A stretch of 64,000 bases of DNA from contig JBBTQY010000001.1 of the NCBI GenBank assembly GCA_038065475.1, forward strand, positions 26,145 to 90,144, written 5' to 3'. This document shows positions 2,005 to 35,463 of this stretch, one piece after another; the first letter of the stretch is position 1, and each line of letters starts with the position of its first letter. This stretch comes from Patescibacteria group bacterium (lineage in GTDB: Bacteria; Patescibacteriota; Minisyncoccia; Ryanbacterales; GWA2-47-10b). The position numbers and the translations under genes were made by a program. The notes under the pieces are model-generated. The model saw nothing but the letters and a program-made list of their open reading frames with translations. It was not told the DNA's origin and searched no databases.

Positions 2005-3009
2005 CTACTTGAAAAGCACCCGCGCATCTTCCCAGAGTTCTGGCTCACCGCGTTCTTTGAGAGCATACCAAAACTCAACGCCCCAAAGATAAAACATATC
2101 GAAACCGGTGCGCGACGCGTACGCAGCCATTTCTGATAAATCGTCATCGCCAAAAGATTTCTCTCGCTCCGCGCGGGAAAAATTTTGTACTGCACCGGGC
2201 CCCCATGGCTCCGCTTGCAGCTCGATGACAACACTCTGACGCTTGTCGGTAAAAAGCGTGGCGAGAGCGTACTTGAGACGAAAAAATGAAGGCGGTAATG
2301 GATAGGTTACATACCCAAAGCGCTCCGTGTACACCGTACGATACATGGTTGTACCAAAAATATCTGCGCGCGACATAGCGGGCACCCACAATGACAATTC
2401 ACCTGAGTCAGTAATCACAATGGGACGCGAAGGGTCGAGTGAACGCACAAGCGCTATTTCCTGATCTAAAAATTCCTGATGAAATGGCGGGCAGATGCCA
2501 AATGGCAAAAATGGCTCATTCTCAACCTGCCATGCGACAATGGTATCCATGCCGCGATATCGCTCAACAACCATTTGTAGATAATTCAAAATAAGTTTGT
2601 CTTTTTCTGCATCAGTCATGTCGTGCGCCCATGCTGCTTCGTGACATTCTGGCCAACGTGGCACTTTGCGTCCAATCGCAACGATAACCTTTGCCCCTAC
2701 GTCGTCAGCGCGGCTCAACATATAATCGTAATCATCAAAATACCACTCGCCTTGTCGATGTTCGACCTCCGGCCAATAGACAGGAATACGCAAATGTCGC
2801 ACACCCAAATCTTGTAATATCGCCTCATACACCTCCGCCCACGCGATACCGAAGGATCGAGCATAGATATGTGAAAACGTTACCCCCCACACTTGTGGTT
2901 CACGTATGGGCGCGCGCACCACCAGCACATAACATCCGAGCAAAACTACTATCAATCCCCCCATAATGGCGCGAAGCACTTTGTGGCGTTTTCTGGCGTA
3001 ATACATCAT
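2005..3009 (-). CDS. membrane-anchored glycoside hydrolase, clan GH-A (GH5-like) TIM barrel
   Basis: N-terminal TM helix. WQVENEPF motif, typical of the NEP catalytic acid/base of clan GH-A hydrolases. Family assignment not resolved. Confidence 0.55.
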   Translation of the reverse strand: MMYYARKRHKVLRAIMGGLIVVLLGCYVLVVRAPIREPQVWGVTFSHIYARSFGIAWAEVYEAILQDLGVRHLRIPVYWPEVEHRQGEWYFDDYDYMLSRADDVGAKVIVAIGRKVPRWPECHEAAWAHDMTDAEKDKLILNYLQMVVERYRGMDTIVAWQVENEPFLPFGICPPFHQEFLDQEIALVRSLDPSRPIVITDSGELSLWVPAMSRADIFGTTMYRTVYTERFGYVTYPLPPSFFRLKYALATLFTDKRQSVVIELQAEPWGPGAVQNFSRAEREKSFGDDDLSEMAAYASRTGFDMFYLWGVEFWYALKERGEPELWEDARVLFK

Positions 3010-4770: not shown

Positions 4771-5202
4771 CTACTTTTCGCGGACAATCAACTTTCCTAC
4801 TTGGTCGTAATGACCTCGCGGCTTACCATCAATCACTCCGTCGCCGCAGGCAACCGAGCAATAAAACTGAAACTCCCCCGCTTGCGAGGCGATAAATTGT
4901 ATCGTTGTCGTGCTCTTTGGAAAAATACGTTCATTGACTGCAAATTCATCGAGACCGATACCGTGATCGTACGCATCTTCATTGTAAATATGCAAAATTA
5001 CTTTTGCGCCTTTAGTTGTTTCAAACATATTCGGCTCAAAAAGCCAGCTGCCCTCAACCGATCGCATGTTTCGCTCGAGCACCGTTACGCCATCCCAAGC
5101 GACAGCACCTATATTGGCAGGTCGAAAATATTTTTGATAGACAACGCCACCTCCAATCAAAACCGCAGCAAATAGAAGAAAAACAATATATTTGTTACCC
5201 AT
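4771..5202 (-). CDS. cupredoxin-like domain protein, membrane anchored (putative copper-binding)
   Basis: N-terminal TM. C-terminal FQFYCSVACGDG…HYDQVGKLIV matches the Cupredoxin_1-type pattern FxCxxxCGxxHxxMxGxLxV. Divergent from copA. Confidence 0.6.
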   Translation of the reverse strand: MGNKYIVFLLFAAVLIGGGVVYQKYFRPANIGAVAWDGVTVLERNMRSVEGSWLFEPNMFETTKGAKVILHIYNEDAYDHGIGLDEFAVNERIFPKSTTTIQFIASQAGEFQFYCSVACGDGVIDGKPRGHYDQVGKLIVREK

Positions 5203-5279
5203 AGGTATGCACAGGGAGCTTTATATTCCCGTGATAAGATAGAGTTAATACTATTACTATAGCATAATTCTTCTTTTTT

Positions 5280-7664
5280 ATGGCAACCATTCGTCAAAGT
5301 TATCGCGTACAGGGCATGCACTGCGCAAACTGCCAAGTACTCATCAACAAAATTCTCTCTGCGCAAAAGGGTGTCTCGAAGGCAAATGCAAATTATAGCT
5401 CCGAGCGCTTGATCGTCGAATATGATCCGGCGACCATCACCCTCGACGCTATGCAAGGTATTCTCAAAAAAGTGGGCTACGGACTTATCGTACCCAAAGA
5501 AGGGGCCTTGGAAGAAGAAGAAGTAGAAAAACATCGCCTCGCAGAGATAAAACACCTGCGCAACCGCACTATTATCTCGTTTTTGCTTGCCACGCCGATC
5601 ATCCTCTACTATATGGCGGTGCACATGTTTAACCTTCAGCACGGCCACGCGCTTTGCGCGGGGGGTGATGCCATCATCAAGGTAATCGATGGCGCATGCA
5701 CCAACGGCACCTTCATTGATCTCAACTGGATTTATCTGATCATGACTACGCCTATTCAGTTTTTTGTGGCATGGCCCTTCTATCGCAACGCCTATACAGC
5801 ATTGAGGGTGGGCTCAACCAATATGGATGTACTTGTAGTACTTGGTACTACAACCGCCTATCTCCTCTCTGCATTTGGATTTTTCTTCTCAATTTCATTC
5901 AAAGCTGGCTACCAAGACGTTTGGCAAGGTTTGAGTCATCCCTATTGGGAATCGTCAGCGGCACTCATATCATTTCTTATTTTGGGACGCTATTTTGAAG
6001 CGCGCGCCAAGGGGCAGGCATCGAGTGCCATTCGAAAACTTCTCAAGCTTGCACCCCAAGATGCCATTATCATTCGTGATGGCAAGGAAGTAACCGTAAA
6101 AATTGGTGATATCCAGATTGGTGATATATTCCTCGTAAAACCGGGCGAAAAAGTTGCTACTGACGGCATTGTAGTTGAGGGTGAGACTGCAATTGATGAA
6201 AAAATCATTACTGGTGAATCAATACCGGTTAACAAAAAAGCTGGCGATCAGGTTATCGGGGCAACGGTAAACAGCTATGGACTCCTCAAGTGTCGCGCAT
6301 CCAAAGTGGGCAAAGACACCCTACTCCATCAAATCGTAAAGATGGTAGAAGAAGCTCAATCAGCACGCGCGCCCATTCAAGATTTTACTGATCGTGTTTC
6401 CGAATATTTTGTACCAGCCATTGTGGTCATCGCCCTCCTTTCGTTTTTCTATTGGTATTACATCGCGGGCAAAATCATTGCGGTCGCACTCTTGGCCGCC
6501 GTCTCTGTCCTTGTAATCTCATGCCCTTGCGCTATGGGGCTCGCAACACCAACCGCCATCATGGTAGGTACGGGCCGTGGTGCCGAGTTTGGCGTACTGC
6601 TTAAGGGTGGCGAGGCACTCGAAAAAACTCGCTCACTCAACGCTATAGCCTTTGATAAAACGGGAACGCTCACAAAAGGTGAGCCTTCAGTCACCGACAT
6701 AGTACCTTTAGGTGAACTCTCGCGCGACGAGGTTTTGAAAATTGCTGCTACCGCTGAACGCGGATCTGAGCATCCGCTTGCACAAGCAGTAGTAAAAGCG
6801 GCAAAAGATTTAAATCCCCCAGAACCCAAAGAGTTTAAAAACGTTTCAGGCAAAGGAGTTTCCGCCCTTTATGAAGGCAAAACAGTTTTGGTTGGCAACG
6901 ACGAGCTCATGAAATCAATGAATATTGATTATATTGCAGGCGAGAAAGACCTTGACCGCCTACAGGGCGAAGCCAAGACCGCAGTTTTTATCGCCTATGA
7001 TGGCAAATTGATCGGCGTACTTGCGATGGCTGATACCCTCAAAGAATATGCAAAAGAGACTATTGCTGAGCTTAAAAAGCGCGGGCTTGAGATTATCATG
7101 ATCACGGGTGACAATCAAAAAACCGCAGACGCGATAGCAAAACTTGTTGGTATTGATCGCGTCATGGCGAAAGTTCTACCCGAGAAAAAAGAAGAAGTCA
7201 TCAAAGAGCTTCAAAAGCAGGGCAAGCGTGTGGCTATGGTCGGCGACGGGGTAAACGACTCCCCTGCCCTCGCGCAAGCTGAGGTCGGCATCGCTGTGGG
7301 ATCAGGTACTGATGTCGCCATCGAGACCGGCAGCATTGTACTCATCAAAGACGATTTGCGTGACATTGTGACGGCTCTCGATCTCTCACGTAAAACTATC
7401 CGCAAGATTTGGCAAAATCTTTTCTGGGCCTTTATTTATAATATTGTGGGTATTCCCCTTGCCGCAGGGCTTCTTTACTACATCGGGCAAAATTATCCTG
7501 CATTTGTTGCGGGTCTTCCGTGGGGCAAAAGTGCGTTTAACGCATTTCTCAAGCCTGAATACGCCGGTTTTGCCATGGCATTTAGTTCGGTATCAGTAGT
7601 AGGAAACTCGCTCCTTCTCAAATATTTCCGCGAACCCAAGATTGCGAGAGAAAAAGCAGCGTAG
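5280..7664 (+). CDS. copA: copper-translocating P1B-type ATPase
   Basis: N-terminal HMA domain (GMHCANCQ), CPC motif in TM6 (SCPCAMGLATP), DKTGTLT phosphorylation site and GDGVNDSPAL hinge. Confidence 0.9.
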   Translation: MATIRQSYRVQGMHCANCQVLINKILSAQKGVSKANANYSSERLIVEYDPATITLDAMQGILKKVGYGLIVPKEGALEEEEVEKHRLAEIKHLRNRTIISFLLATPIILYYMAVHMFNLQHGHALCAGGDAIIKVIDGACTNGTFIDLNWIYLIMTTPIQFFVAWPFYRNAYTALRVGSTNMDVLVVLGTTTAYLLSAFGFFFSISFKAGYQDVWQGLSHPYWESSAALISFLILGRYFEARAKGQASSAIRKLLKLAPQDAIIIRDGKEVTVKIGDIQIGDIFLVKPGEKVATDGIVVEGETAIDEKIITGESIPVNKKAGDQVIGATVNSYGLLKCRASKVGKDTLLHQIVKMVEEAQSARAPIQDFTDRVSEYFVPAIVVIALLSFFYWYYIAGKIIAVALLAAVSVLVISCPCAMGLATPTAIMVGTGRGAEFGVLLKGGEALEKTRSLNAIAFDKTGTLTKGEPSVTDIVPLGELSRDEVLKIAATAERGSEHPLAQAVVKAAKDLNPPEPKEFKNVSGKGVSALYEGKTVLVGNDELMKSMNIDYIAGEKDLDRLQGEAKTAVFIAYDGKLIGVLAMADTLKEYAKETIAELKKRGLEIIMITGDNQKTADAIAKLVGIDRVMAKVLPEKKEEVIKELQKQGKRVAMVGDGVNDSPALAQAEVGIAVGSGTDVAIETGSIVLIKDDLRDIVTALDLSRKTIRKIWQNLFWAFIYNIVGIPLAAGLLYYIGQNYPAFVAGLPWGKSAFNAFLKPEYAGFAMAFSSVSVVGNSLLLKYFREPKIAREKAA

Positions 7665-7678
7665 TATCATAACCTTAT

Positions 7679-7897
7679 ATGGCAATTGTAAAAAAACAAT
7701 TTGATGTAGGTGGCATGCACTGCGGCTCGTGTGCGGCAGGCATCCAGATGGTGCTCTCAACCCAAGACGGCATTAAAAACGCCTCAGTCAGCTGGGACAC
7801 CAAATCGGGCGAGGTTGAGTTTGATGACTCAAAAGTAACCGTAGAACAAATCCAAAAATCAGTCTCCGAGCTCGGATACTCAGCTACACCAAAGTAA
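7679..7897 (+). CDS. copZ: heavy-metal-associated copper chaperone
   Basis: 72 aa with GMHCGSC metal-binding motif and ferredoxin-like HMA fold. Lies 14 nt after copA. Confidence 0.85.
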   Translation: MAIVKKQFDVGGMHCGSCAAGIQMVLSTQDGIKNASVSWDTKSGEVEFDDSKVTVEQIQKSVSELGYSATPK

Positions 7898-7911
7898 TAA
7901 TACTCTGAGAA

Positions 7912-7948
7912 CAAAAAAAGCGTGACCCCATGTCACGCTTTTTTGTTT
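7912..7948 (+). terminator. rho-independent terminator after copZ
   Basis: Hairpin aagcgtgac-CCCA-tgtcacgctt followed by a TTTTGTTT run. Confidence 0.6.
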
Positions 7949-7966
7949 AGCCCAGCAGCACCGCGT

Positions 7967-8143
7967 TTACAAAAACGCGATGAGCAGCCAGCTGAGCGCT
8001 GCCGATATCACAAGTGCTATGAGTCCCGTGATGAGTGCGCGCGATGCGGAAATTTTTTCTTTTTTATAGAAGATGCCCGCAACTGTCGGGCCAGCGATAA
8101 AAAGTACCAGTGACGCGATCCAAACGACTGAGAGAAAATCCAT
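7967..8143 (-). CDS. putative 58-aa two-helix membrane peptide (below ORF-track cutoff)
   Basis: Translated by hand from the reverse strand: MDFLSVVWIASLVLFIAGPTVAGIFYKKEKISASRALITGLIALVISAALSWLLIAFL. Two hydrophobic helices. Starts 11 nt downstream of the stop of 8155..10083. Confidence 0.3.
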   Translation of the reverse strand: MDFLSVVWIASLVLFIAGPTVAGIFYKKEKISASRALITGLIALVISAALSWLLIAFL

Positions 8144-8154
8144 AATAAGCAGAT

Positions 8155-10083
8155 TTAGTGCGCGTGCCCACCGCCACCCTGCATCATCGAGCCCCCTTCG
8201 GGTCCTTGAGTGACTGAAATATCAAAGGTGGTTGTATATACGTCACCCCCGCGCGAAAACTGCGCAAATGCCCTATAGAGGCCTGGGTACGGAAATGCAG
8301 CATGAACGTCAATGAGAGGGCCAAATACGGCGTCTGGGGGCACCTCATGGCCGTAGCCGGGTACCTCACCATGCGTATGGATAAAATAACCAAGATCATA
8401 ACTCCAGATAGCCAAATGCATGGGCGCCCCAAGATACGCGACCATGTCATTTACTGGAGTGCCATCGTCGTTAGTCATTGTGTATTCAAGATGTGCTGAT
8501 ACGCCTGATTGAATTTGCCCCGGATCAGTTTTGAGGTTTACCGTAAGGTCATCAAATTTTTCTTCGCGCATCAGGTTTTTTGTGATTGCAACCGGCTCCG
8601 GTTTGCCACCTGGCACTGTCACAATATTCTGCACCGTGCCTGCGTGCCCCTGGTGCAAAAATCCACTCGCCAGCGAATAGGTACCCGCCTTAGGAAATGT
8701 GACGTAGATAGGATATTCTCCCTTGGCACGCATCTCGTCAGTGATCTGACCGTAATCATCAGGATGCACATGCATAAATGTCTCAAGGTCTTCAGAGACA
8801 ATGATGACGTGCACCAAACGCTCATGCTCGATCTTGAGATCTTGCAATGGTGCGCCGTTCTCATCTTTGAGCGCGATAGTTATTCGGGTCAACTCGCCAG
8901 GCCTTGGCATCAGTGGATCAGTAGTAACCACACCTTGAAACGCTGGCGCAGTTTCCATATGAGTCGCATGAAATTGGAAATTATGAGGCAATACCCAGCC
9001 AAACAGCGTATAGAGACCAATGCCGAGCCAAATTACAAAACCCAAATAGGTGCGTGACGCGGCAACTTTCTGAGCACGCTCCGCCTCAAGAGCCTCGTGC
9101 GCTTCTTTGCGCTTTTTCCACCAAATCCAGACAAACGGTATGAGCCATATGGTGACCATAACGTAGCTGCCCAGCCATAAATTGTCTCCCAGAGGTAACT
9201 CGTGCGCATGACCCAATTGGCCAATATTTGACCCTAGCAAGCCCGTAATCGCCTCTTCTTGCGTCACGCTCTCCAGATATGTGTGGATGCCTGAATATAC
9301 ATACCAGTCATGAGTAAAGGTACCGAGGGTAAACAAAAATCCTGCGACAAAGACCATTGCCCATCCGGTCGTCTTCTCAACCTTGGTGCGGTGTTTTACC
9401 AAAAAGCCAGTAGCGTTGACCCCCAAGATTGCGTAAAACGTCAAAATAAAGAGCGGAGTGACGCGCCCGAGTGCTTGCACTACCATGATAAGCCAGCCCT
9501 GAAACGCGCTGCCGCTGACCAAAATCTGCGGGATGATCACGCCATTGAACAACGGATTGGGGCACCCAACACCCACATTGCCCAAAAAGAGACCGAGCAA
9601 AAATGCTTTGACATATTCCTGCTGCTTTTGGATAAAATCAGGAAACGCGCCACCGTAGGTAGGCATCTTGATACCTTTAAGACCTATATCATGAAATGCA
9701 AAAAGGAGCCCCATGGCACCTGCAAACATATACATCCAATTTTTTGCAGTCTCAGCGCTACCCAAAAAGGTTTGGCCGATAGCGCCCAAAAGCGCCCCGT
9801 AAAAACTGAGAGTAATCGTCACACCAGCGGCAAATGCAGCTGCAATACCAATGCCACGAATATATCCCTTGCCCATGGCGAGCGGCACTACCACGAATGC
9901 AAGCGGCAGCGTGCAGGGCAAAAAGATCATAGTGAGACCTACCGCATAGTCATATATATAGAAAAAGGCGCTGTCAGTAGTGGGTGCGGCAAAAAATACC
10001 CACCGGAGGCCGATGGCAAAAACTGCAGTCAGGATAACGGTAAGGACAAGAAGCGGAAGGCGCGTCTTTTGGCTTTCTTCCAT
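8155..10083 (-). CDS. CcdA/DsbD-like thiol-disulfide transporter fused to a duplicated His-rich periplasmic domain
   Basis: The N-terminal ~370 aa is polytopic and carries the two conserved Cys of the CcdA/DsbD family (FLPCTLPL in TM1, GVGCPNPLF). The C-terminal ~270 aa contains two related ~110-aa repeats with H-x-H motifs (FMHVHPDD, FIHTHGEVPGYGHE) and ends in GGGGHAH. Confidence 0.65.
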   Translation of the reverse strand: MEESQKTRLPLLVLTVILTAVFAIGLRWVFFAAPTTDSAFFYIYDYAVGLTMIFLPCTLPLAFVVVPLAMGKGYIRGIGIAAAFAAGVTITLSFYGALLGAIGQTFLGSAETAKNWMYMFAGAMGLLFAFHDIGLKGIKMPTYGGAFPDFIQKQQEYVKAFLLGLFLGNVGVGCPNPLFNGVIIPQILVSGSAFQGWLIMVVQALGRVTPLFILTFYAILGVNATGFLVKHRTKVEKTTGWAMVFVAGFLFTLGTFTHDWYVYSGIHTYLESVTQEEAITGLLGSNIGQLGHAHELPLGDNLWLGSYVMVTIWLIPFVWIWWKKRKEAHEALEAERAQKVAASRTYLGFVIWLGIGLYTLFGWVLPHNFQFHATHMETAPAFQGVVTTDPLMPRPGELTRITIALKDENGAPLQDLKIEHERLVHVIIVSEDLETFMHVHPDDYGQITDEMRAKGEYPIYVTFPKAGTYSLASGFLHQGHAGTVQNIVTVPGGKPEPVAITKNLMREEKFDDLTVNLKTDPGQIQSGVSAHLEYTMTNDDGTPVNDMVAYLGAPMHLAIWSYDLGYFIHTHGEVPGYGHEVPPDAVFGPLIDVHAAFPYPGLYRAFAQFSRGGDVYTTTFDISVTQGPEGGSMMQGGGGHAH

Positions 10084-12652: not shown

Positions 12653-13885
12653 CTATTCAAAACGAAATGGCGAGTTTTTAATCATTTCGAGAGCTCTTTC
12701 CGTCCAAAATTTGCCCGTGGGTACCCCGCCGTTACATGGTCCATCGGATTCTCCTGGTAGTTTAACCCATAAAAGCGCATCTACAAGCACATTACCTGTC
12801 GTAGTAGTCGGCACCTTGCCTATAGTTACTCCAGGGGCATTACACCACTCTGTTTTATGCGGACCAGAACCATTGCGGCTCGTATCGATCACAAAGTGTT
12901 TATTACCAATAAGCGTGGAGACCTCTTGCCCAAAGGCAATCTCATCTGAAACGTACTGATAGTTAGAGACATTAAGAGCAAAGCCATCAGCCGAATCAAT
13001 GCCCGCTGTTTTAAGAAAATTAGCGATACTGCTCGCCTTGCGCCAATTGCTATGACCGGCATCAAGATATATTCGCGCTTTTGGCGCCTTGGCTCTCAGA
13101 GTCAAAATGGCTTTTTTGAGGTCCGCCAGACGGACAGCTTGGTCAGAATCACTCAAATTCGCAACAAGACCTATACTATCGGGCTCAAGGATGATCCAAG
13201 CATCATGATCTCCTATAGACTCAGCGACAGCGGTAACCCACTGAGCATAACTATCTCCCGCCGTTATGCCGCTCCAGTAACGTAGCGTTGTATGGTCAGG
13301 AATATTGTAAAGTACCAAAATAGGCATTTTACCTGCAGCTGTAGCCTTAGAAACAGTAGAAATTACGCGAGAACGAATAGTATCGAGGTTGTCGCCAATG
13401 ATCCATGTACCCTGAGGTCTACAAGAAATTTGCTGCAATAAATCAGCATCTGCTATATTGCCAGCGTTTCGTAATTCTTTCTCAACGCGAACTGCTTGCA
13501 TGGTGGGATCAACATAAAAATTTGTTGAATTTTTCGCGTATTCGCAGCTAAAAACCTTTTGTGGATTTGGTGGCGGGGGTGGGTTAACAACGACTACTGG
13601 AGGAGGAGTAGGGTTTACCGGTGGTGGAGGTGGGGAGATTGGTTTTGGCGGAGGCACAGGCAATACTGGTGGAGGAGGATTAACCACTTGAATGGGCGGC
13701 GGTACATTAGGTTGAGGAATTGTTGGTGGATTGGGAGAAATAACGACTGGAGGAATTTCTTCTTCTCTCTCCCAAGTTTGAGTCGTTTGTGTATACGTAG
13801 ATGCAAAAAGTACGAAAATAAAACCCGCAGCGATAAACACCACAGCAAGATACTGAATAAGCCCGCTTGTATTATCTCTTCCCAT
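12653..13885 (-). CDS. glycoside hydrolase family 6 (endoglucanase/cellobiohydrolase-like), membrane anchored with proline-rich linker
   Basis: N-terminal TM and a Pro-rich PPxP linker. Catalytic domain has the GH6 signatures AWIILEPDSIGL (cf. VIEPDSL) and DALLWVKLPGESDG (cf. WVKPGGESDG). Confidence 0.75.
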   Translation of the reverse strand: MGRDNTSGLIQYLAVVFIAAGFIFVLFASTYTQTTQTWEREEEIPPVVISPNPPTIPQPNVPPPIQVVNPPPPVLPVPPPKPISPPPPPVNPTPPPVVVVNPPPPPNPQKVFSCEYAKNSTNFYVDPTMQAVRVEKELRNAGNIADADLLQQISCRPQGTWIIGDNLDTIRSRVISTVSKATAAGKMPILVLYNIPDHTTLRYWSGITAGDSYAQWVTAVAESIGDHDAWIILEPDSIGLVANLSDSDQAVRLADLKKAILTLRAKAPKARIYLDAGHSNWRKASSIANFLKTAGIDSADGFALNVSNYQYVSDEIAFGQEVSTLIGNKHFVIDTSRNGSGPHKTEWCNAPGVTIGKVPTTTTGNVLVDALLWVKLPGESDGPCNGGVPTGKFWTERALEMIKNSPFRFE

Positions 13886-19955: not shown

Positions 19956-22900
19956 TTAGAGTTGTGTAATGCTGGCGGCGTTATTTACCCACTGATAGAG
20001 CCCTGTCCAGTTGAGTTTAATAACGCCAACCGCTACGCGATAGGTGCCTGGGCCTGGCGGCGTAAATTCATAGTTAAACACACGAGACTCACCTGCTTGC
20101 AAGGTTTCGCCATTGTAAAATTCTTGGAATACTTGCGTGCCTCCAGCGTCGTACACTTCAAGATTGAGTACTACATGACCGGGTTGAGTGCCGGTATTTT
20201 GAAGGGTCACATCGATATCACGCATACCGGACGCTCCAGTGACCACTGTACTCGCGTGTGTGGGCACAAAATCGGTCATCGGCGTGGTAGATCCGCCCAA
20301 TGACCATGCAGGGTCATTTACATCAACATCCGCCGTTGAACCAAATCGCCCATGGTGACCACTATTTGATCGATCGATAATATCTTGCCCGAAGTTTTCA
20401 TTGAACTTCCAGTATTTGATAAGACCAATCTGAGAGCCGATAAGAGGTTGACCGAGCGTCGCCAAAATATCATCATCTGCACGCACAATATTCCAAACAC
20501 GCATATCCTCGAGAACACCTTTAAATCCCCTTGCGGAATGATCCGCAGGATTGCCGCCGATCACCACAGGAGCTGACGTTTGTGCGATATTGCCCGTTTT
20601 CGGCACCGTTGCGACCACCGCTCCATTTTTATAGAGCCGCATCGCAGCACCGTCATAGCGCGCAGCAATGTGCGTAGTCTCGTTGAGTCCAAATGAACCG
20701 CCAACAAGTTTTGTGACTACACCGTCAGTATTAAGCCTAAAAACAAATTGATTTTGATCATTCACCCCGATAGACCAAACATAATCATTGTCAGTAATAC
20801 CTGTAGCCTTCGCGAGTAGGTCTGCGTTGCGACCAAGCTCTGACGCCTTAAACTCGGCCTCGAAAGTAAAGGTGGGCTCTTCTACGTCCCACACTCCGAT
20901 ATCGACATAATCATTTACACCGTCAAAAACGAGCGCGCCATCGTTATTCGTTGGTATAACAGAAGGTACACTCGCGCAATCGCCAAACCCCTCTGCTGGA
21001 TAACTAAAGATAGCCGTATTATCACCCCACTTATTTTTGACCCATGATGCAGGTCCGGGTGTTTCAAACGATGGATTCTTTACAAGATTGGAAGTATCAT
21101 TACCCTCCTTGCGTACATAAAACTGATCAACAGTTAATGAGCCGACACCATCAATAATATGGAAAAAAGTAACCGTACCTGTATTTGGGGGCGTCAGTAT
21201 AGATGCAGTGGCATCTTGCCATGTTGCTGCGGCGGGCAAAGTACCAAGCCCTCGATATTGTACCGATCCGTCATGCATTCTAAGCACCGCAACAATACGC
21301 GTTGGTACAGTTGCCTTATATTTATCTGAAAAATAATAAGTTAAATCTGATGCAACTACTAACGGCTCGTGATACCACTTGGCATCACCAGTCACATATT
21401 CAGTGATCTCAACTTTCGCTCCACGAACGGTGCAGGCTTCTATTTTTTCATATTCAAAGTTAACGAGTGCAGCGTATGCATTTTCATAGTATTCAAGCTT
21501 CATCGTATGGATTCCGGGTGTCATTTGATGAGTAACAGTATAAGTTGTCGCTGCCTGATCATGCCACTCATCTATGACAAGAACATCATCAACATAAAGC
21601 CGCACACCATCGTCAGCTGTTACAGTAAATTGATAAGTTGCGTCTTCAAAGTCTGCTTGCTTTATCCAGCGCGCTGAGAACCGGTCTGGTTGGATAAGTG
21701 CATGCGGAGAATTAAGCCCCCAATCAAAATTGATCGAGGCATCTTGCTGTACAACGCTCGGAGCTCCGCTCAGATTTATGTTATTGAAATATGATGCGCA
21801 AAATTCATCAGCACCGACGACACCCGATACCGGATAAGAAAAAGTTACCGTATTATCGCCCCAACTATTCTGAGCCCAGTTATCTGATCCTCCCTCTTCA
21901 AATGACCAATCGCTAATAAGATTATTTTCTTGATCTGATATATCGTAAAGTTCATAAGCATCCACTTCCAAAAACCCTACAGATCGAATGAGATGAAAAA
22001 TAGAAATACGTTGAGCATCCTCGGGTACAAAAAACGTTTTTTCGTTTTTTGTCCAGGTGTCAGACGGCGCCACTTCTCCTAACCAGCGGTACAAAAACGT
22101 TCCGTTGGTCAGACGGATTTGCAAAATTAAAGTTGAGGAAACATCTGATCGAGAGTAATTAGAAAAATTATATAATCCAGCGCCTGGCACAACATCTACC
22201 TCTTTCATGCGCCACTTGGCGTCACCGGACGTATATGCCGACATATCAATGCGAGCTGCCTTCGCGCTACAAATATCTTTCTTGGCATACGCAAGTTTTG
22301 CGACCGCCGCAAAACCATTTTCATAATATTCCATACGAATAGTATGGAGCCCCGGAGTGATTGAGCGCTCAACGGTATGAGCTGTCGCTGCTTGATCGTG
22401 CCATTCATCTATGATAGCGACATCGTCAATAAAGAGGCGCACGCCATCATCAGCATTTACCGTGAACTCATATAGCCCTCCATCAAAATTTTCTTGTCGC
22501 GTCCAACGAGCAGAAAAATGGTCATCAGGAATTACAGGATTCGGTGAACCAAGCCCCCAATCAAAATTGATCGAGGCATCACTACGCGTAAGAGCTGGCG
22601 TACCTATCGGCGTTTGAGTATTATAATACTCGCCGATAAAACCATTCGAAGCATCAACTAATCCTATATTAATACTTTTCTTCACAGAAAGACCTTGGGA
22701 ATCTGTTGCTGTTAAAGCAAGCTCGAAATATGTATCACTACCATGATCAGGAACGACGAAGCTACCAGACTCGCCCGTCATATCTAATAGAGGATGGTTA
22801 TGACACGTGCCAAACGGACAATGATGAACAATAACCACCCACTGAAGACTGCCCCCAGCAAGGGCACCGTCCTCAAGGTCACTGGCGGATCCGGAAAAAT

Positions 22901-24497
22901 TCAATGTATCACCTTGATGTACTGATGTTCCGTCAGTTGGAGCGATGATTGTCGCTGTAGGCTGATGATTGCCTGGCTGAATCTGCACAGAAGCCGAACC
23001 GGCTGCATTAAAGCTATCGGTGACAGTTAATGTTACGTTAAATATGCCAGCTGTCGTATATGTATATGTTGGATTTGCCTCTTCAGAGGTTGCCCCGTTA
23101 CCAAAATCCCAATGATAACTAATAGTATTTCCATCTTGGTCGGAAGATCCAGCGCTTGAAAAATGTACAGTCATTGGTACAGAGCCGCCTACTGCATCGG
23201 TAGAAATTTTTGCTGTGGGGGCATGATTATCGCTCGAGTAACGCACGCGCACAATCTCATCAGGATAAATAGAAACATAATAAAGATGCCCATCCGGCCC
23301 CATGGTGATATCCACCGGTGTTGCAACCTGCTGACTAAAAATCTTGTTACTATCAGGAACAAGGTTATTTAAATCGTCCAACCTTAAGGTACGCATTTCA
23401 TTGCGGCCGTAATCACTGAAAAAGAAAGAGCCCTGATACTCAGCCGGGAACTCTGTACCGGTATAAAAAGTACCACCAACTACCGCAGCTCCCGGCGGAT
23501 GATTATACGTATAGAGAGGTTTTGTATCTCCGCCTGCCGCATAAAAATCTTGGCACGCACCCATAAAATGATACCCCTCCTGCTGCTCGTCTCCCTCCCA
23601 ACATGGCCATCCATAATTGCCACCTGGAGTAATAACGTTGATTTCTTCAATAGCCGACCAGCCAACATCGCCTACAACAAGAGTGTTCGTACCAGGCTTA
23701 ATATTAAAACGGTATGGATTGCGAAACCCATATGCCCATACTTTTGAGCGATTTTCGTTTGGATCGCCAGTATAAAAAGGGTTTGATTCAATACCGGTGC
23801 CGTCTGTATTAATGTGTAAAATTTTACCCGCCAAACTATCAAGGTTTTGGGTACGCAACGCAAGCGGATCTACTGTCGTGAATGACGAGGCGTCACCTGA
23901 ACTGACAAAAAGAGTACCATCATCGGCAACCCGAACAGATCCAATAGTATGGCTTGGGGAGTCGCTCGGAATACAATCAGCACCTACGGGAAGATCTTCG
24001 CAAGACGCGGCACTAGCCGTCCCTAAGATGATCGTTTCACTGCCAGGTAGAGCAACATCGCCATCAGCGACAACACGAGAAAGACGACTTGTTTTAGTGC
24101 CAGTGTAATCATCGGGATTATTTTCATAAGTATAGAGTAGATAAATAAAATGGTTCGTCTCAAAGTCCTTATCAAAGGCAAGATCAAGTAAACCACGATC
24201 ATTATAATCATTGACGTGTGAGAGAGTGATAAATGGCGTAGGTAAAACAACACCATCCTTTACAACTTTCACCACTCCTCCCTTTTCCACCACAAACATT
24301 CGGCCATCGGGAGCAAAGCGTGTCGCTACGGGCAAATTAAAACCAGAGGCTACAGACTCAAGGTAAAAACCTGCTGGCAAATCAGTTGCCGCAGCACCCC
24401 ACGATACGGGGATGAAATGCCAAACACTCAAGGCTAAAAAAAGCCCGAGAACTATAGATATTTTTACTTTTATGGATTTCGTTTTCATGCTTAGCAT
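19956..24497 (-). CDS. giant secreted multidomain surface protein: GSDH-like β-propeller + PKD + 2×(PA14 + β-sandwich) + LamG/ConA-like + CARDB-like
   Basis: Signal peptide MKTKSIKVKISIVLGLFLALSV. GSDH motifs (VASGFNLPVATRFAPDGRMFVVEKGG). PKD domain (…YHWDFGNGATS…). Two PA14 domains (…DHFSARWTRQ…DDGVRLFIDDV and …DRFSARWIKQ…DDGVRLYVDDV). LamG-like and CARDB-like C-terminus. The ORF track extends to 24593, but the signal peptide begins at the internal Met (24488/24497), which also removes the overlap with the upstream GT39 gene. Confidence 0.8.
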   Translation of the reverse strand: MLSMKTKSIKVKISIVLGLFLALSVWHFIPVSWGAAATDLPAGFYLESVASGFNLPVATRFAPDGRMFVVEKGGVVKVVKDGVVLPTPFITLSHVNDYNDRGLLDLAFDKDFETNHFIYLLYTYENNPDDYTGTKTSRLSRVVADGDVALPGSETIILGTASAASCEDLPVGADCIPSDSPSHTIGSVRVADDGTLFVSSGDASSFTTVDPLALRTQNLDSLAGKILHINTDGTGIESNPFYTGDPNENRSKVWAYGFRNPYRFNIKPGTNTLVVGDVGWSAIEEINVITPGGNYGWPCWEGDEQQEGYHFMGACQDFYAAGGDTKPLYTYNHPPGAAVVGGTFYTGTEFPAEYQGSFFFSDYGRNEMRTLRLDDLNNLVPDSNKIFSQQVATPVDITMGPDGHLYYVSIYPDEIVRVRYSSDNHAPTAKISTDAVGGSVPMTVHFSSAGSSDQDGNTISYHWDFGNGATSEEANPTYTYTTAGIFNVTLTVTDSFNAAGSASVQIQPGNHQPTATIIAPTDGTSVHQGDTLNFSGSASDLEDGALAGGSLQWVVIVHHCPFGTCHNHPLLDMTGESGSFVVPDHGSDTYFELALTATDSQGLSVKKSINIGLVDASNGFIGEYYNTQTPIGTPALTRSDASINFDWGLGSPNPVIPDDHFSARWTRQENFDGGLYEFTVNADDGVRLFIDDVAIIDEWHDQAATAHTVERSITPGLHTIRMEYYENGFAAVAKLAYAKKDICSAKAARIDMSAYTSGDAKWRMKEVDVVPGAGLYNFSNYSRSDVSSTLILQIRLTNGTFLYRWLGEVAPSDTWTKNEKTFFVPEDAQRISIFHLIRSVGFLEVDAYELYDISDQENNLISDWSFEEGGSDNWAQNSWGDNTVTFSYPVSGVVGADEFCASYFNNINLSGAPSVVQQDASINFDWGLNSPHALIQPDRFSARWIKQADFEDATYQFTVTADDGVRLYVDDVLVIDEWHDQAATTYTVTHQMTPGIHTMKLEYYENAYAALVNFEYEKIEACTVRGAKVEITEYVTGDAKWYHEPLVVASDLTYYFSDKYKATVPTRIVAVLRMHDGSVQYRGLGTLPAAATWQDATASILTPPNTGTVTFFHIIDGVGSLTVDQFYVRKEGNDTSNLVKNPSFETPGPASWVKNKWGDNTAIFSYPAEGFGDCASVPSVIPTNNDGALVFDGVNDYVDIGVWDVEEPTFTFEAEFKASELGRNADLLAKATGITDNDYVWSIGVNDQNQFVFRLNTDGVVTKLVGGSFGLNETTHIAARYDGAAMRLYKNGAVVATVPKTGNIAQTSAPVVIGGNPADHSARGFKGVLEDMRVWNIVRADDDILATLGQPLIGSQIGLIKYWKFNENFGQDIIDRSNSGHHGRFGSTADVDVNDPAWSLGGSTTPMTDFVPTHASTVVTGASGMRDIDVTLQNTGTQPGHVVLNLEVYDAGGTQVFQEFYNGETLQAGESRVFNYEFTPPGPGTYRVAVGVIKLNWTGLYQWVNNAASITQL

Positions 24498-24531
24498 TAC
24501 TAGGATATTCTTAGCACACAACAAGCCCCCA

Positions 24532-26133
24532 TTACAAAGCCTCGGGCACCGTGAGATCGCTGTTTTGATTACAGCCAAGTGTAGCTGCGACACGCTGCGA
24601 CTTGTCTCGAAGCTTATAAATCTTCACATCTTGATACGAATACACGCAATCAAACTCGCTCGCCAACCACTCACCGCTACGAAATCGCTCATCAATACGA
24701 TCTTTTTCTCTTAACACGGCCCAATCAACCGCGCGCTCAGGCGCCTCTAGTGCGGCGCCGAAAAGCTTGGGATCGCCCACATGCACCCAATACTTGAAAG
24801 GAATACGACTTGCAAAAGGCACAGCATCATTATTAAAAATATCGACCAAGATTAAACCGTGATCGTAATTATCTTGCAACCACTCACCCGCTTCCAGTCG
24901 ACTTTCATTGGCGTGCGCTCCGGCAAAACCATCAACAGCCTCATGCAGAGTTATAATATTATTACTAAGCAACATAACACCGTACTCAATAAAAATTACA
25001 ACGAGCATAAAGATACCAACCTTTTGAAATCGCGCCCCGATAACACCGACAAGGATGGCAAAAAATGGCACAAACATAAGTGCGTAGCGAACATTAAATA
25101 TAAGATACGGTGCTAGTTGGGGAACAAAGATAACGGCATTACCGCCAAATATATTGAGAATATAGTAAACGATGTGAACACCTATCAAGAGAACAAAAAG
25201 ATATCTTAATTGTTTATGCTTTAAGATTTGCCACACAATATATATGAGCCCGAAAATGCTAAAAATAATTAAGAACCATCCTGAGACCATTTGCGCCGCA
25301 TACCATATGTGAGCCAGGGTATTTTCAAGGTCGCCACGCGAGGGTAAGAAGCCGGCAGCTGCGAGTGACTCTTGTTGACCCTTCGAAGAATACTCCCCTA
25401 CTGCAAAATAAAATGGGTTATCAAAAATTGCATAATTCCAAGTAAGCCATAGAACGGGGCCGAGGAACGCAAGAGACGCAAATAAAATAATGGTTGCCTC
25501 AACCTTTTTAGAATCTCGAGAAGTAAGATATAAATAGAGAGCAACAACACATACCGTTGCGATAGCAAAAATCCAACCATCATAACGCGATAGCGTCGCG
25601 AATAAAAACGCTACGCCACTGGCGACCAAATAAATATCTTTAAGAGAACGTGCCCACAGCAAAGCATACATTAGAGCACCGAGCATGGCAGCTATATAAA
25701 ACATCTCTGACAAAGGCGTAGCCTGCATATAAAGCGTATTGGGATTTAGCATAAAGATAAGAGCTGCCAAACCCCCAGCAATCGGTCCTGCCAAAGTCTC
25801 TCCAATTTTGAAAAGAAACCATGAAGCAAGAATGTAAGCGAGCATCGAGAAAAAAATACCAGCAAACCCCGAATAGTAGAGAAAATCTATCCAGATAAAC
25901 GGCAGCATAACAAGGCTTGGTGCAGGCAACCATACATATCCCAATTGAGAAAATCCCGGAGACGTGCCGTCGACCACACGTCGCGACAAATTTAATCGAG
26001 CGGTGGCATCACCGCTAGCATTAGCGAGATCAAGATACATTACTAAAGCCGTCACGACCAAGCTCAAGAAAATAGCTAGAGCTAAAACAAAATATTTTAT
26101 ATATGGTTTATATTTTTCGATCATAGCAATCAT
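24532..26133 (-). CDS. GT39/PMT_2-family membrane glycosyltransferase (protein O-mannosyltransferase / ArnT-like)
   Basis: 533 aa with ~12 TM helices and the loop/TM layout of the PMT_2/ArnT superfamily. 4-bp overlap with the upstream GT2. Confidence 0.65.
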   Translation of the reverse strand: MIAMIEKYKPYIKYFVLALAIFLSLVVTALVMYLDLANASGDATARLNLSRRVVDGTSPGFSQLGYVWLPAPSLVMLPFIWIDFLYYSGFAGIFFSMLAYILASWFLFKIGETLAGPIAGGLAALIFMLNPNTLYMQATPLSEMFYIAAMLGALMYALLWARSLKDIYLVASGVAFLFATLSRYDGWIFAIATVCVVALYLYLTSRDSKKVEATIILFASLAFLGPVLWLTWNYAIFDNPFYFAVGEYSSKGQQESLAAAGFLPSRGDLENTLAHIWYAAQMVSGWFLIIFSIFGLIYIVWQILKHKQLRYLFVLLIGVHIVYYILNIFGGNAVIFVPQLAPYLIFNVRYALMFVPFFAILVGVIGARFQKVGIFMLVVIFIEYGVMLLSNNIITLHEAVDGFAGAHANESRLEAGEWLQDNYDHGLILVDIFNNDAVPFASRIPFKYWVHVGDPKLFGAALEAPERAVDWAVLREKDRIDERFRSGEWLASEFDCVYSYQDVKIYKLRDKSQRVAATLGCNQNSDLTVPEAL

Positions 26134-32244: not shown

Positions 32245-32835
32245 TCAAACACCAACGTGCACAAGTGCAAGAAGTGCCCAGATACCAATCGTATTGAGCA
32301 CGAAAGATATGATTAAAAATGTTTTATTACTCATGCGCGAGAGACCTAAAAGCCCTACGCCCAGCTCGTCCGGTAGCGGTGAGGCAACAATAATTGCGCC
32401 GATAACGGGCGTAATCATACTAAAATAGCGCGAACGAAATACGTGCAAAATATGGAACCTCTTTATACCACCGAAAAGATGTTTGAGATCTTCTGCGAGG
32501 CCGTCTCGTACAAATCGAAAGATAAAATAATCACCTAGCGAGGCACCAAAACCCGCGCATAAGGCAGTTAGAAATATACTATCAAGCTCGCTACCCAAGA
32601 GTATCAACGCCGCCGATGCGGGTATGACAGTAAATGAGCTTACAAACGCCATCCCTACAGCAAACACGCTTATATACCCATACCCGTCAATATGCGTAAT
32701 AACATATTGAAAAATGTGTGCCTGCCAAAACGCCCACGTCAGCACAACGCTCGCAAGAAATGCGGTAACGTTATGATAAATATACCGATGATGATTATTT
32801 GACTTCATTGGGTTTTTTCTGCCACAAAAGGGCAC
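32245..32835 (-). CDS. hypothetical polytopic membrane protein
   Basis: ~5 TM helices. Start may be the internal Met at ~32808. Confidence 0.45.
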   Translation of the reverse strand: MPFCGRKNPMKSNNHHRYIYHNVTAFLASVVLTWAFWQAHIFQYVITHIDGYGYISVFAVGMAFVSSFTVIPASAALILLGSELDSIFLTALCAGFGASLGDYFIFRFVRDGLAEDLKHLFGGIKRFHILHVFRSRYFSMITPVIGAIIVASPLPDELGVGLLGLSRMSNKTFLIISFVLNTIGIWALLALVHVGV

Positions 32836-33013
32836 GACTCAGCACCATACCTACCGCAACACCTATCAAAAATCCACCGATAGCGGCAGGTGTTTGTAAT
32901 GGTACTGCAGCCACTGGGGGCTCTTCGTGCGGTTCATCAGACGCGTGCGCACTCAGAGTCAACGGCACCGCAAGTACCGTCACCATAAAACATACGCCAA
33001 AAAACTTTTTCAT
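32795..33013 (-). CDS. small exported/anchored protein
   Basis: 72 aa with a signal peptide and a C-terminal TM. 4-bp overlap with the upstream gene. Confidence 0.4.
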   Translation of the reverse strand: MKKFFGVCFMVTVLAVPLTLSAHASDEPHEEPPVAAVPLQTPAAIGGFLIGVAVGMVLSRALLWQKKPNEVK

Positions 33014-33525
33014 AGTATTTTTTTATAGACAACAAAGCGCGCGAATACAAATCCAACTATCAAGCCGGCTATCGCAGCGTAAATCAAAGCGATAGCATCA
33101 CTCGCCTGCTCTCGAGGCTGTATGTCGAGCAAATAATCTTCAGCGTGAAAGATTTTTTTAGGCTCATCCGCAAACGCAAAATCAATATAGATCTCATGAA
33201 ATCCTTCTTCGGTAAAATCATAGGTATACCCCACGGTCGAGCGTTCAGCTTTGATGTCGCGTTCTTCAAAAATAAATTGCGGCTCGTCCCCCGGGCTTGC
33301 GAGTCGCGCTACACGTATATGCATAATTGCATCGTGATCAAGTACATTGCCTGACTTGATGTCTGATATTGAGATAAGAAGCTTGGTGGGTGTGCCTACA
33401 CGCGGTGTGAATGGCGCGCGCGACATGGTGACAATATATTTGCCATCAACCACACGCTGCTCGCCACCATGCGCACCCGCCAAAAACGGCAGAACAAAAA
33501 ATAGCGCGAAAAATATTTTTTTCAT
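33010..33525 (-). CDS. YtkA/FixH-like exported β-sandwich protein with C-terminal TM anchor
   Basis: Signal peptide. …PRVGTPTKLLISISDIKSGNVLDHDAIMHIRVA… resembles the repeats in the periplasmic domain of 8155..10083. C-terminal TM. Confidence 0.45.
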   Translation of the reverse strand: MKKIFFALFFVLPFLAGAHGGEQRVVDGKYIVTMSRAPFTPRVGTPTKLLISISDIKSGNVLDHDAIMHIRVARLASPGDEPQFIFEERDIKAERSTVGYTYDFTEEGFHEIYIDFAFADEPKKIFHAEDYLLDIQPREQASDAIALIYAAIAGLIVGFVFARFVVYKKIL

Positions 33526-34181
33526 TAGTATTCCTTGCCCGTCATCTGGGGCACATATTCGGGGCCCTTATCACGATAGCGATCAATGAAATCTTGTACG
33601 CGCACAGCATCAAAACTGCCATCGGCATTGAGATTGAACGTATCGAGCCGATTCCATGCAGCCAAAGCTACGTCAGTTTCATTAGCATTTCTGATGCTTA
33701 CTACTATGCGCACATTGTCACGTGCGATTGCCTTGAGTGCCTCTTTGGTGCTCTCGGGAATACTTGATTTATAGGAAATCCAAATGCGACCGTGCTCGAG
33801 CGAATGCACTACGCCCTCTTCGGGCAATTCTTTGTCATAAACCCCGTCACGCTGAGGGTCGGGCCAGTGCGGGCCTGATGTGGGCGGGTTTGATTTCCAA
33901 GTGGTTGTCTTTTCACCTTCTGTTGTATGATCGCTTCCAGCATCTTCAGTAGCGCGCGAATAATCAGTACCCAATTCACGAGCCTCTGGCAATGAACGGT
34001 AGATAAAATACCCGCCAGAGACAACAAGCAATACAATCAAAACCCAAAAGCCAATCTTTTTTGCTTTGCGCATTTGTACGCGGCGCAGCGCTGCGGCATC
34101 ACGCGCGGCGCGCTCTGCCATGCGCTGGTCTTTTTTAGTTGGCCCCTCTGCTATTTGAGGTTGTATTTGCTCATCTTCCAT
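33525..34181 (-). CDS. DUF3105-domain membrane-anchored protein
   Basis: …SGPHWPDPQRDGVYDKELPEEGVVHSLEHGRIWISYKS… matches the DUF3105 signature. Confidence 0.7.
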   Translation of the reverse strand: MEDEQIQPQIAEGPTKKDQRMAERAARDAAALRRVQMRKAKKIGFWVLIVLLVVSGGYFIYRSLPEARELGTDYSRATEDAGSDHTTEGEKTTTWKSNPPTSGPHWPDPQRDGVYDKELPEEGVVHSLEHGRIWISYKSSIPESTKEALKAIARDNVRIVVSIRNANETDVALAAWNRLDTFNLNADGSFDAVRVQDFIDRYRDKGPEYVPQMTGKEY

Positions 34182-34991: not shown

Positions 34992-35458
34992 TAGATTGAT
35001 TTTTGATCAGCCAATACTTGATCTGCATGCTCTTTGGGTTTTACCTCACTATACATCTTGGCGATCTTGCCCTCAGGATTTATGAGAAACGACATACGCC
35101 TCGTACCCATATACGTGCGCCCCATAAATTTCTTCTCACCCCACACACCATACGCCTCTACCATTTTTTTGTCAGTATCGGCTAAAAGTGGAAATGGCAA
35201 CTGATACTTTCGGGCAAATTTTTCATGCGAAGTAATCGAGTCAGTGGATACTCCCAATATCGCTATCTTTGATTTTTTAAAATCAGTAAAACTATCACGA
35301 ATAGTACACGCCTCGGTGGTGCATCCCGGAGTATCGTCTTTGGGATAGAAATAAATCAGCAACCACTTGCCCACATAATCTTTGAGCGAGTGGTTGGTGC
35401 CCGACTGATCGGGCAAATTAAATGCTGGCGCTTTAGATCCTTCTTTGAGTTGTGCCAT
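34991..35458 (-). CDS. bcp: thiol peroxidase / peroxiredoxin Bcp
   Basis: FYPKDDTPGCTTEAC active-site motif. Internal Met at 35458 chosen as start. Confidence 0.85.
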   Translation of the reverse strand: MAQLKEGSKAPAFNLPDQSGTNHSLKDYVGKWLLIYFYPKDDTPGCTTEACTIRDSFTDFKKSKIAILGVSTDSITSHEKFARKYQLPFPLLADTDKKMVEAYGVWGEKKFMGRTYMGTRRMSFLINPEGKIAKMYSEVKPKEHADQVLADQKSI

Positions 35459-35463
35459 GCTCC

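Follow-up and report, generated by a model that had tools for sequence, protein, structure and literature searches.

Known assembly of CuA centres calls on a reductant, CcdA or TlpA, and on a supplier of copper, which is Sco, PCuAC or CtaK (PMC9145763). In Bacillus subtilis, YcnJ has a CopC-CopD-YtkA architecture (PMC13344008), and genetic evidence ties both its YtkA domain and CtaK, a paralogous lipoprotein, to the assembly of CuA centres (PMC13344008; PMC9145763). CtaK carries conserved His and Met residues and a His-rich C-terminal tail, EEEHSHHH (PMC9145763). Reductases of the ScsB class have a large N-terminal periplasmic domain with redox Cys and a partner, ScsC (PMC3322552). In Chloroflexi, a DsbD_2-cupredoxin fusion is located between CopZ, a Cu-ATPase and a CsoR-like regulator, an entry of a gene table that passed without remark (PMC8756737), and an archaeal DsbD-family protein has been speculated to handle Cu(I) (PMC7785015). 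The CopC family (CopC, PcoC and H. pylori CrdA) and P19/FtrA/Tp34 also belong to the nearest systems. Here we describe a copper locus in a 64-kb stretch of a Patescibacteria genome (64,000 nucleotides, hereafter the window). Its central element is a 642 amino acid (aa) protein in which a CcdA/DsbD-like membrane core is fused to two copper-type domains, and we tentatively suggest that it serves the assembly of copper centres outside the cell.

The locus encodes a cupredoxin, the copper exporting ATPase CopA, the copper chaperone CopZ and, convergent on copZ, the 642-aa protein (Table 1). The genes, coordinates and motifs listed in the initial annotation, which was made from the DNA sequence without database searches, were all borne out, and the locus is a copper locus as it had proposed. 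In a Patescibacteria metagenome-assembled genome (MAG), a protein annotated as 'cytochrome c biogenesis protein CcdA' has the same sequence as the 642-aa protein (100% identity). The closest relatives of the 642-aa protein, with 78-85% identity, are encoded in MAGs of Candidatus Ryanbacteria and of unclassified Patescibacteria. The cytochrome label is probably a misnomer, because most of the host bacteria are not known for c-type cytochromes.

Conservation was counted in 71 homologues of the 642-aa protein with 37-85% identity, and in further alignments of 14 and 12 sequences. The only Cys of the protein are C57, in the sequence FLPCTLP, and C174, in GVGCPNP. The two do not vary in any of the three alignments and lie in Pro-rich breaks of transmembrane (TM) helices 1 and 4, the arrangement that defines CcdA and DsbD. 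The protein itself scores below the Pfam thresholds; its best Pfam match, DsbD_2 (PF13386), reaches 21.8 bits against a cut-off of 24.9, and NCBIfam DsbD gives an E-value of 0.004. The CcdA/DsbD assignment therefore rests on the family, in which 59/71 homologues match PF02683 DsbD_TM (best E 2.6e-13) and 18/71 match DsbD_2. Using hhalign, a profile of the membrane cassette aligned with a probability of 90.8% (E 1e-6) with a canonical CcdA of the candidate phyla radiation (CPR) from a related genome (253 aa, 64 bits to PF02683), with C57 and C174 in register with both catalytic Cys. The core with two conserved Cys that had been read from the sequence alone thus holds in the wider family.

The AlphaFold2 model of the full-length protein has a mean predicted local distance difference test score (pLDDT) of 86.6. 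It consists of an N-terminal helix, a six-helix core broken at both Cys, two short outside helices with a loop, two further TM helices and the beta-domains. Applied to the modelled helices, the positive-inside rule predicts a location outside the cell for the segment that follows TM6 and for the C-terminal domains. This segment harbors a patch of six residues, H258, H267, E271, E276, H292 and H294, which is invariant in every alignment made. Canonical CcdA stops before it, and the patch had escaped the initial annotation. Three semi-conserved His (H367, H372 and H375) follow just past the last TM helix. Searches of PDB profiles with full-length and TM-only alignments gave chance matches only (claudin, TOM5), and a Foldseek search of the full-length model against the PDB gave generic tandem Ig/FN3 proteins only, which carry no information on the fold of the core. 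An internal 3+3 TM repeat was not detected by hhalign, which is uninformative for such divergent inverted repeats.

The two tandem His-bearing beta-domains that had been noticed in the C-terminal part are a real duplication. Domains 1 and 2 align by hhalign with a probability of 99.7% (E 4e-26), and their His triads superpose. Each contains an H-x12-H-x-H triad together with an Asp, and the triad of domain 2 is preceded by M555. Five of the triad residues, H425, H438, H556, H569 and H571, are invariant in the 71 homologues, and H440 is found in 70/71. Modelled alone, the two-domain module, hereafter beta2, forms a beta-sandwich with a pLDDT of 94.4 and a predicted template modelling score of 0.90. 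The closest solved fold is that of the CopC-family protein CrdA. The GGGGHAH end of the tail is present as had been reported; of its His, H640 is kept in 48/71 and H642 in 31/71 homologues.

With Pfam YtkA (PF13115) the 642-aa protein reaches 21.8 bits (cut-off 25.9) over a 21-residue stretch, and 13/71 homologues match the model, the best at E 3e-7. The link is clearer through the protein P0149, which matches beta2 of the window at E 3e-38 and Pfam YtkA at 33.6 bits, above the cut-off and over 78/85 model positions. Judged by these profiles, the beta-domains are divergent YtkA/CtaK-like domains. A phmmer search with beta2 against 1.84 billion representatives gave 2,645 clusters, including apparent stand-alone forms, CcdA fusions and CopC-CopD-beta2 proteins of 820-1000 aa, some of the latter above the Pfam YtkA threshold; some of the short matches are fragments of longer proteins. 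In the CcdA-fused family, and likewise in 67 diverse representatives of the module, stand-alone and CopC-CopD-fused forms included, the triad, the Asp and M555 are invariant or at least 90% conserved. A Gly-Cys conserved near the N-terminus in the beta2 alignment consensus could be a lipoprotein signal. For one stand-alone form (P0164, 264 aa) the annotated source is a MAG of Candidatus Nanoarchaeia (DPANN archaeon), and the beta2 module is therefore not limited to bacteria. Together, these comparisons support the description of the 642-aa protein as a divergent CcdA/DsbD-type core fused to two tandem YtkA-like His-bearing beta-domains.

Compared with CcdA, DsbD and ScsB, the 642-aa protein shares the homologous TM core, the two invariant Cys in the TM1 and TM4 breaks and, in most relatives, a thioredoxin gene alongside. 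Unlike them, it has neither a thioredoxin-like or Cys-bearing outside domain nor such a partner. In addition to the core it has the N-terminal helix, the patch of four His and two Glu, two C-terminal TM helices and Cys-free domains of copper type. The difference from ScsB is also one of order, as the N-terminus of the 642-aa protein is a single TM helix and the extracytoplasmic domains, which lack Cys, are C-terminal.

With CtaK/YtkA and YcnJ the protein shares a domain family at the Pfam level (seen in close relatives), a predicted extracytoplasmic and membrane-tethered position, conserved His (and Met in domain 2), a His-containing C-terminal tail, the fusion to a copper-related membrane protein and an association with a putative CuA-type target. 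The CtaK tail is comparable to the GGGGHAH end of the window protein. Here the domain occurs in tandem, which sets it apart from CtaK/YtkA, and has the H-x12-H-x-H and Asp triad; the likeness to CtaK was drawn at the level of the family. The membrane partner is CcdA-like here, whereas it is CopD in YcnJ, and the window protein falls under the Pfam threshold. The initial annotation regarded the fusion as undescribed. No study of this fusion, architecture or cluster was found in the literature searched, but the claim needs narrowing: YcnJ is known (PMC13344008), and a YtkA-like domain fused to a copper membrane protein is therefore not new. The component families are known; what the searched literature does not describe is how they are put together, with His sites outside a CcdA core, exchangeable copper heads and a six-gene cluster that recurs across Patescibacteria. 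The combination of a CcdA-type thiol relay with His-lined copper sites as its outside partner matches no studied system.

A scan using one genome per species revealed a relative of the family in 327 species genomes, nearly all of them Patescibacteria. Three loci are labelled Gammaproteobacteria, Binatia or Verrucomicrobiia (L014, L067 and L071). All are MAG contigs of at most 11 kb, so that binning contamination is likelier than an occurrence outside Patescibacteria. We profiled 83 related loci, 31 of them well-flanked, using domain-restricted hidden Markov models; the restriction was made because DoxX-cupredoxin fusions had contaminated a first jackhmmer MauE/DoxX profile. A recurrent order was found, usually on one strand: a small thioredoxin, DoxX/MauE, the CcdA cassette with beta2, the cupredoxin, CopA and CopZ. 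In the well-flanked loci, the cupredoxin is present in 29/31, CopA and CopZ each in 27/31, thioredoxin in 25/31, DoxX/MauE in 24/31 and all five components in 18/31. Both this cluster and the wide spread in Patescibacteria go beyond the initial annotation.

An adjacent thioredoxin gene is present in 66/83 related loci. It encodes an MJ0307-like protein of about 90 aa with a CxxC, and the sequences read showed no evident signal peptide, in keeping with a donor located in the cytoplasm. L005 retains DoxX. In L070 and L071 DoxX and the cassette form a fusion, whereas in L002 and L012 the fusion partner of DoxX is the cupredoxin. In six loci the cassette and beta2 are separate genes, which indicates that the two parts work together. 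A Cys-bearing acceptor of thioredoxin fold (ResA/CcmG/DsbDgamma/ScsC) was found neither in the 642-aa protein nor among the six recurring cluster genes of the 83 loci.

The DsbD/LysE-superfamily core could also be a channel for Cu(I) or another metal, in which C57/C174 would form a site in the membrane, and the patch and the beta-domains an outside relay for entry or exit like that of CopC and YtkA serving CopD in YcnJ. The same beta2 module is found on CopC-CopD importers, the outward His (H258, H267, H292, H294 and the semi-conserved H367, H372 and H375) resemble a metal relay, and DsbD_2, the best Pfam match of the window protein, is a family that includes UreH-like nickel permeases. We nevertheless regard transport as highly improbable: the conserved neighbouring thioredoxin, of redox type with its CxxC, points to a Cys pair that cycles between redox states, the cluster already has a Cu(I) exporter in CopA, and more homologues match the redox family PF02683 than DsbD_2.

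The cupredoxin, described in the initial annotation as a membrane-anchored, cupredoxin-like protein encoded divergently from copA, passed the Pfam Cupredoxin_1 cut-off and can be refined further. Its putative ligands are H80-x34-C115-x3-C119-x11-H131-x2-Q134, and the pattern H-x34-C-x3-C-x3/x11-H-x2-M/Q is conserved in about 65/69 cupredoxin homologues at related loci. The ligand spacing suggests that the protein is specifically CuA-type, with a putative binuclear purple centre. Among NCBIfam models it comes closest to the C-terminal CuA region of NosZ, nitrosocyanin and CoxB/CtaC, with NosZ and CoxB far under their cut-offs. It thus resembles the CuA domains of COX2 and N2O reductase in its ligand pattern and in having the NosZ C-terminal region as best NCBIfam match. 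It differs from them in being stand-alone and membrane-anchored with no oxidase or NosZ partner, in an insertion of 8 residues before the second His and in a Gln in place of the Met.

Our preferred reading, to which we assign a probability of about 40%, is that the 642-aa protein acts as a combined reductant and metallochaperone that assembles or maintains extracytoplasmic copper centres. In brief, CopZ would pass Cu(I) to CopA, CopA would export it, and the beta-domains would capture the exported copper outside. Electrons from the cytoplasmic thioredoxin would pass via C57/C174 and maintain in a reduced state both the exported copper, as Cu(I), and the Cys residues that serve as ligands in the client. 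The copper would then be inserted into the co-encoded CuA-type cupredoxin or, in relatives, into a fused NirK or multicopper oxidase. The usual outside thioredoxin-like partner would be replaced by His-lined copper sites, namely the patch, placed where the Cys pair would open to the outside, and the two beta-domains. In this reading the known CuA assembly line would be compressed into one polypeptide. We consider it the most economical because of the CcdA homology, the thioredoxin in most relatives, the lack of an outside thiol acceptor, the His/Glu patch, the triad domains and a CuA-type cupredoxin in the neighbourhood of CopA and CopZ. What the data show directly are the identities of the domains, the residues that do not vary, the topology as predicted, the gene cluster and the alternative fusions; from these we infer that copper is bound, which way copper and electrons run and which protein is the client.

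Several observations weigh against a reductant and metallochaperone. Three His and an Asp could also hold Zn, Fe or Ni. With Cu(I) already exported by CopA, the need for a dedicated reductase is not obvious. The window of 64 kb contains no thioredoxin, and no thioredoxin or DoxX gene lies near the 642-aa gene in the window or in L004. Neither the sequence-profile nor the fold search retrieved a solved CcdA/DsbD structure. Finally, the cupredoxin is retained in loci where a multicopper oxidase or NirK takes the place of beta2, although these clusters encode no beta2, and beta2 is therefore not an obligatory chaperone of the cupredoxin.

These alternative heads, absent from the initial annotation, are found on the same membrane cassette in loci L031, L052, L054, L056, L057, L059, L066 and L082, where NirK or a multicopper oxidase of two or three domains is attached to it, and further in the proteins P0085, P0089, P0090, P0102 and P0109. 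The cassettes are 46-56% identical and retain every invariant Cys, His and Glu. P0109 is a bona fide copper nitrite reductase fusion (E 2e-92 to AniA), P0085 is a fusion to a two-domain oxidase of laccase type, and three-domain multicopper oxidases are fused in L052, L054, L057 and L066. The fusions occupy the same slot in the cluster, with thioredoxin and cupredoxin kept. In L076, cassette and oxidase are adjacent separate genes, and a separate NirK or multicopper oxidase gene is located near some loci of the beta2 type (L007, L060 and L076). As in three-domain NirK enzymes, the NirK of these relatives is fused to an extra module in a redox or copper context; unlike in those enzymes, the module, seen in relatives only, is an N-terminal polytopic CcdA-like cassette instead of a soluble redox protein.

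The alternative heads raise the question whether the cassette feeds electrons to copper enzymes. Electrons from NAD(P)H would reach a terminal copper head by way of thioredoxin, C57/C174, copper held in the His patch and then the CuA cupredoxin, with neither cytochrome nor quinone involved. The head would be NirK, a multicopper oxidase or the two three-His beta-domains, reducing nitrite, O2 or another oxidant. An identical cassette with all invariant Cys, His and Glu sits in the same slot on NirK and on two- and three-domain multicopper oxidases, and the cluster keeps an electron-transfer CuA cupredoxin and a dedicated thioredoxin. In solved structures matching P0109, the domains fused to NirK are cupredoxin or cytochrome c. 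Such domains act as electron donors to NirK. For CPR bacteria the electron donor of NirK is an acknowledged gap, said to work 'by an unknown means' (PMC5581439), and feeding of non-thiol acceptors by the DsbD family has been proposed elsewhere (PMC8238504).

Even so, we find a role in electron input unlikely. A metal centre as electron acceptor is known for no CcdA or DsbD, and the coupling of a two-electron dithiol to one-electron copper is without precedent. The fusion could merely anchor and mature the enzymes. No NirK or multicopper oxidase is present in the window. Beta2 is found on CopC-CopD importers too, and in a putative lipoprotein form, as one would expect of a chaperone or binding domain rather than of a terminal enzyme. 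The more specific proposal, that Patescibacteria may use the cassette as a thioredoxin-driven transmembrane wire leading through patch copper and the CuA cupredoxin to NirK, oxidase or beta-domains, is likewise doubtful. Patescibacteria mostly lack quinones, cytochromes and respiratory complexes. Such a wire, if real, would be a new type of electron sink or O2-scavenging chain built from thiols and copper only.

The locus could alternatively be a copper-tolerance island with an ScsB-like reductase. CopA and CopZ would perform efflux, the beta-domains or a CueO-like oxidase and the cupredoxin would sequester or oxidise copper outside, and the CcdA-like core, thioredoxin and DoxX would power the repair of copper-catalysed disulfides. 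CopA and CopZ are classical efflux components, and the best structural match of the beta-domains, CrdA, is a copper-resistance determinant. Members of the DsbD/ScsB family have been tied to copper tolerance (PMC3322552) or to copper binding (PMC7785015), and the Chloroflexi fusion mentioned above sits beside CopZ, a Cu-ATPase and a CsoR-like regulator (PMC8756737). The fit to the locus is poorer. No outside thioredoxin-like or DsbC/ScsC-like acceptor is found among the six recurring genes of the 83 loci, and the fused domains, being free of Cys, could not carry out thiol-disulfide exchange. The NirK fusions are hard to reconcile with detoxification, the CuA ligand set implies an electron-transfer centre and not a sponge, and no copper sensor was found in the window by regular-expression and Pfam scans. 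We therefore think the ScsB-like reductase for copper tolerance, which the initial annotation had brought up, rather improbable.

Under the preferred reading, a reductant joined to a metallochaperone, the cassette is a candidate answer to how surface proteins are loaded with copper in minimal-genome bacteria without Sco, PCuAC or TlpA. It is also a candidate for the electron source of NirK, multicopper oxidase and cupredoxin proteins of Patescibacteria, a question that the cassette-NirK and cassette-oxidase fusions make approachable by experiment. The six-gene cluster is conserved in most of the 83 loci, and the family occurs in at least 327 Patescibacteria species genomes.

CopA is a P1B-1 ATPase with all motifs present: GMHC12 in the N-terminal heavy-metal-associated (HMA) domain, TGE311, CPC415 in TM4, DKTGT459, YN720 in TM5 and MAFSS766 (MxxSS) in TM6. 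It reaches 596 bits with the Cu-ATPase model TIGR01511 (cut-off 397) and 644 bits with TIGR01525. CopZ is of the CopZ/Atx1 type, a ferredoxin-like HMA domain of about 70 aa with GMxCxxC; with the species-specific CopZ equivalog models of NCBIfam it scores 54-56 bits, under their cut-offs. The GMHCxxC variant reported for CopA and CopZ is present in both, but it is not specific to this locus: it was found in 58/58 CopZ and 57/57 CopA N-termini of related loci and is clade-wide.

The initial annotation saw no regulator of the CsoR, CopY or CueR type in the window, and we agree. A regular-expression scan of all open reading frames of the window, which was not exhaustive, gave no CsoR, MerR, ArsR or CopY signature, and a Pfam scan of 20 flanking genes turned up no regulator either. 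The cupredoxin gene and copA are divergent, with 77 bp between them. This region (5203-5279), proposed for comparison with known copper operators, contains neither a TACAnnTGTA CopY box nor a GC-rich palindrome of CsoR type. It does contain an inverted repeat (Table 1), which is preserved in L004. L005 has another palindrome (CATAGAGTG...CCACTATG) at the same place, and the swap looks like a compensatory change. The repeat could be a hairpin in the 5' untranslated region or an operator.

A second cluster of the window encodes four proteins, one of which had been described as a third stand-alone copy of the beta-domain. This 171-aa protein is a distant relative (hhalign probability 86.5% to domain 1 and 41% to domain 2), and a jackhmmer search started from it eventually reaches a CcdA-beta2 protein. 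It is not a copy of the same domain, as it lacks the HxH and the metal triad, and its His69, aligned with H425, varies within its own family. A homologue search gave 8 close relatives only. We considered an N-terminal histidine brace (CopC/YcnI-like; mature end AGA/HGGEQ) on this protein and ruled it out, as homologues have Asn and His69 is not conserved. Homologues of the 171-aa protein are located inside the copper cluster in L007, L021 and L048.

The 72-aa protein of the second cluster belongs to a family built of a signal peptide, the motif (A)H-x-x-D/E...H-E-E(P) and one TM helix. Relatives with (A)H-x-x-D/E...H-E-E are encoded directly upstream of the CcdA-beta2 gene in L002, L012, L014, L015, L016 and L019, and in clusters of Microgenomates type the gene of the relative is placed directly between copZ and the CcdA-beta2 gene. 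Cleavage after the Ala would leave these proteins with an N-terminal His, and they could then form a small membrane-tethered copper-binding peptide. Homologues of the DUF3105 protein are encoded immediately upstream of the CcdA-beta2 gene in L005 (8085-8741) and L065 (6689-7261), a recurrence that hints at a copper- or redox-related role. The second cluster is nevertheless functionally linked to the copper cluster: elsewhere, homologues of the 171-aa, 72-aa and DUF3105 proteins are encoded within the copper cluster or beside it. An AhpC/TSA peroxiredoxin (142 bits), a thioredoxin-dependent enzyme, is encoded two genes upstream of the DUF3105, 171-aa and 72-aa genes.

Table 1. Positions in the window of the features discussed; relatives of the 72-aa protein are given by position in their own locus.
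Feature	Position	Strand	Remarks
Copper locus	4771-10083		every open reading frame of the initial annotation present
Cupredoxin, 143 aa	4771..5202	-	N-terminal TM anchor; Pfam Cupredoxin_1 33 bits, cut-off 27
Inverted repeat	5210..5233		CACAGGGA-N9-TCCCGTG; between the two divergent genes, 7 nt ahead of the start codon of the cupredoxin
CopA	5280..7664	+	P1B-1 Cu(I)-exporting ATPase; single N-terminal HMA (GMHCANC); TIGR01511, TIGR01525
CopZ-type Cu(I) chaperone, 72 aa	7679..7897	+	GMHCGSC; Pfam HMA 62.3 bits
58-aa two-helix membrane protein	7967..8143	-	directly 3' of the 642-aa gene; clade-specific
642-aa protein gene	8155..10083	-	convergent on copZ
C-terminal tail	8158..8193	-	GSMMQGGGGHAH; disordered, pLDDT <50
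Beta-domain 2, aa 506-630	8194..8568	-	duplicate of domain 1; M555, H556, D563, H569, H571
Beta-domain 1, aa 378-505	8569..8952	-	YtkA-like; H420, H425, D432, H438, H440
Membrane cassette, aa 1-372	8968..10083	-	N-terminal helix, CcdA-like 6-TM core, His/Glu patch, two further TM helices
Patch H258...H294	9202-9312	-	
C174 codon	9562-9564	-	
C57 codon	9913-9915	-	
Second cluster	32245-34181		DUF3105, 171-aa, 72-aa and 196-aa membrane protein
72-aa protein	32795..33013	-	signal peptide, His/acidic motif (AHASDEPHEE), TM anchor
171-aa protein	33010..33525	-	secreted, C-terminally anchored beta-sandwich; distant beta-domain paralogue, no His triad
DUF3105 protein	33525..34181	-	membrane-anchored; first gene of the second cluster; Pfam DUF3105 90.8 bits
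AhpC/TSA peroxiredoxin	34991-35494	-	
72-aa relative, L002	6721-6984		
72-aa relative, L014	419-628		
72-aa relative, L016	9763-9978		
72-aa relative, L019	9858-10013		

The 58-aa membrane protein has no family match in Pfam or NCBIfam and is kept only in the closest relatives, L004 and L005. The neighbours of the copper locus are unrelated housekeeping and glycoside hydrolase genes. A GH5-like enzyme (2005-3009, negative strand) and a GH6 enzyme (12653-13885, negative strand) are encoded on either side of it, the latter of cellulase type and notable for a minimal Patescibacteria genome. By far the largest open reading frame of the window encodes 1545 aa (19956-24593, negative strand).

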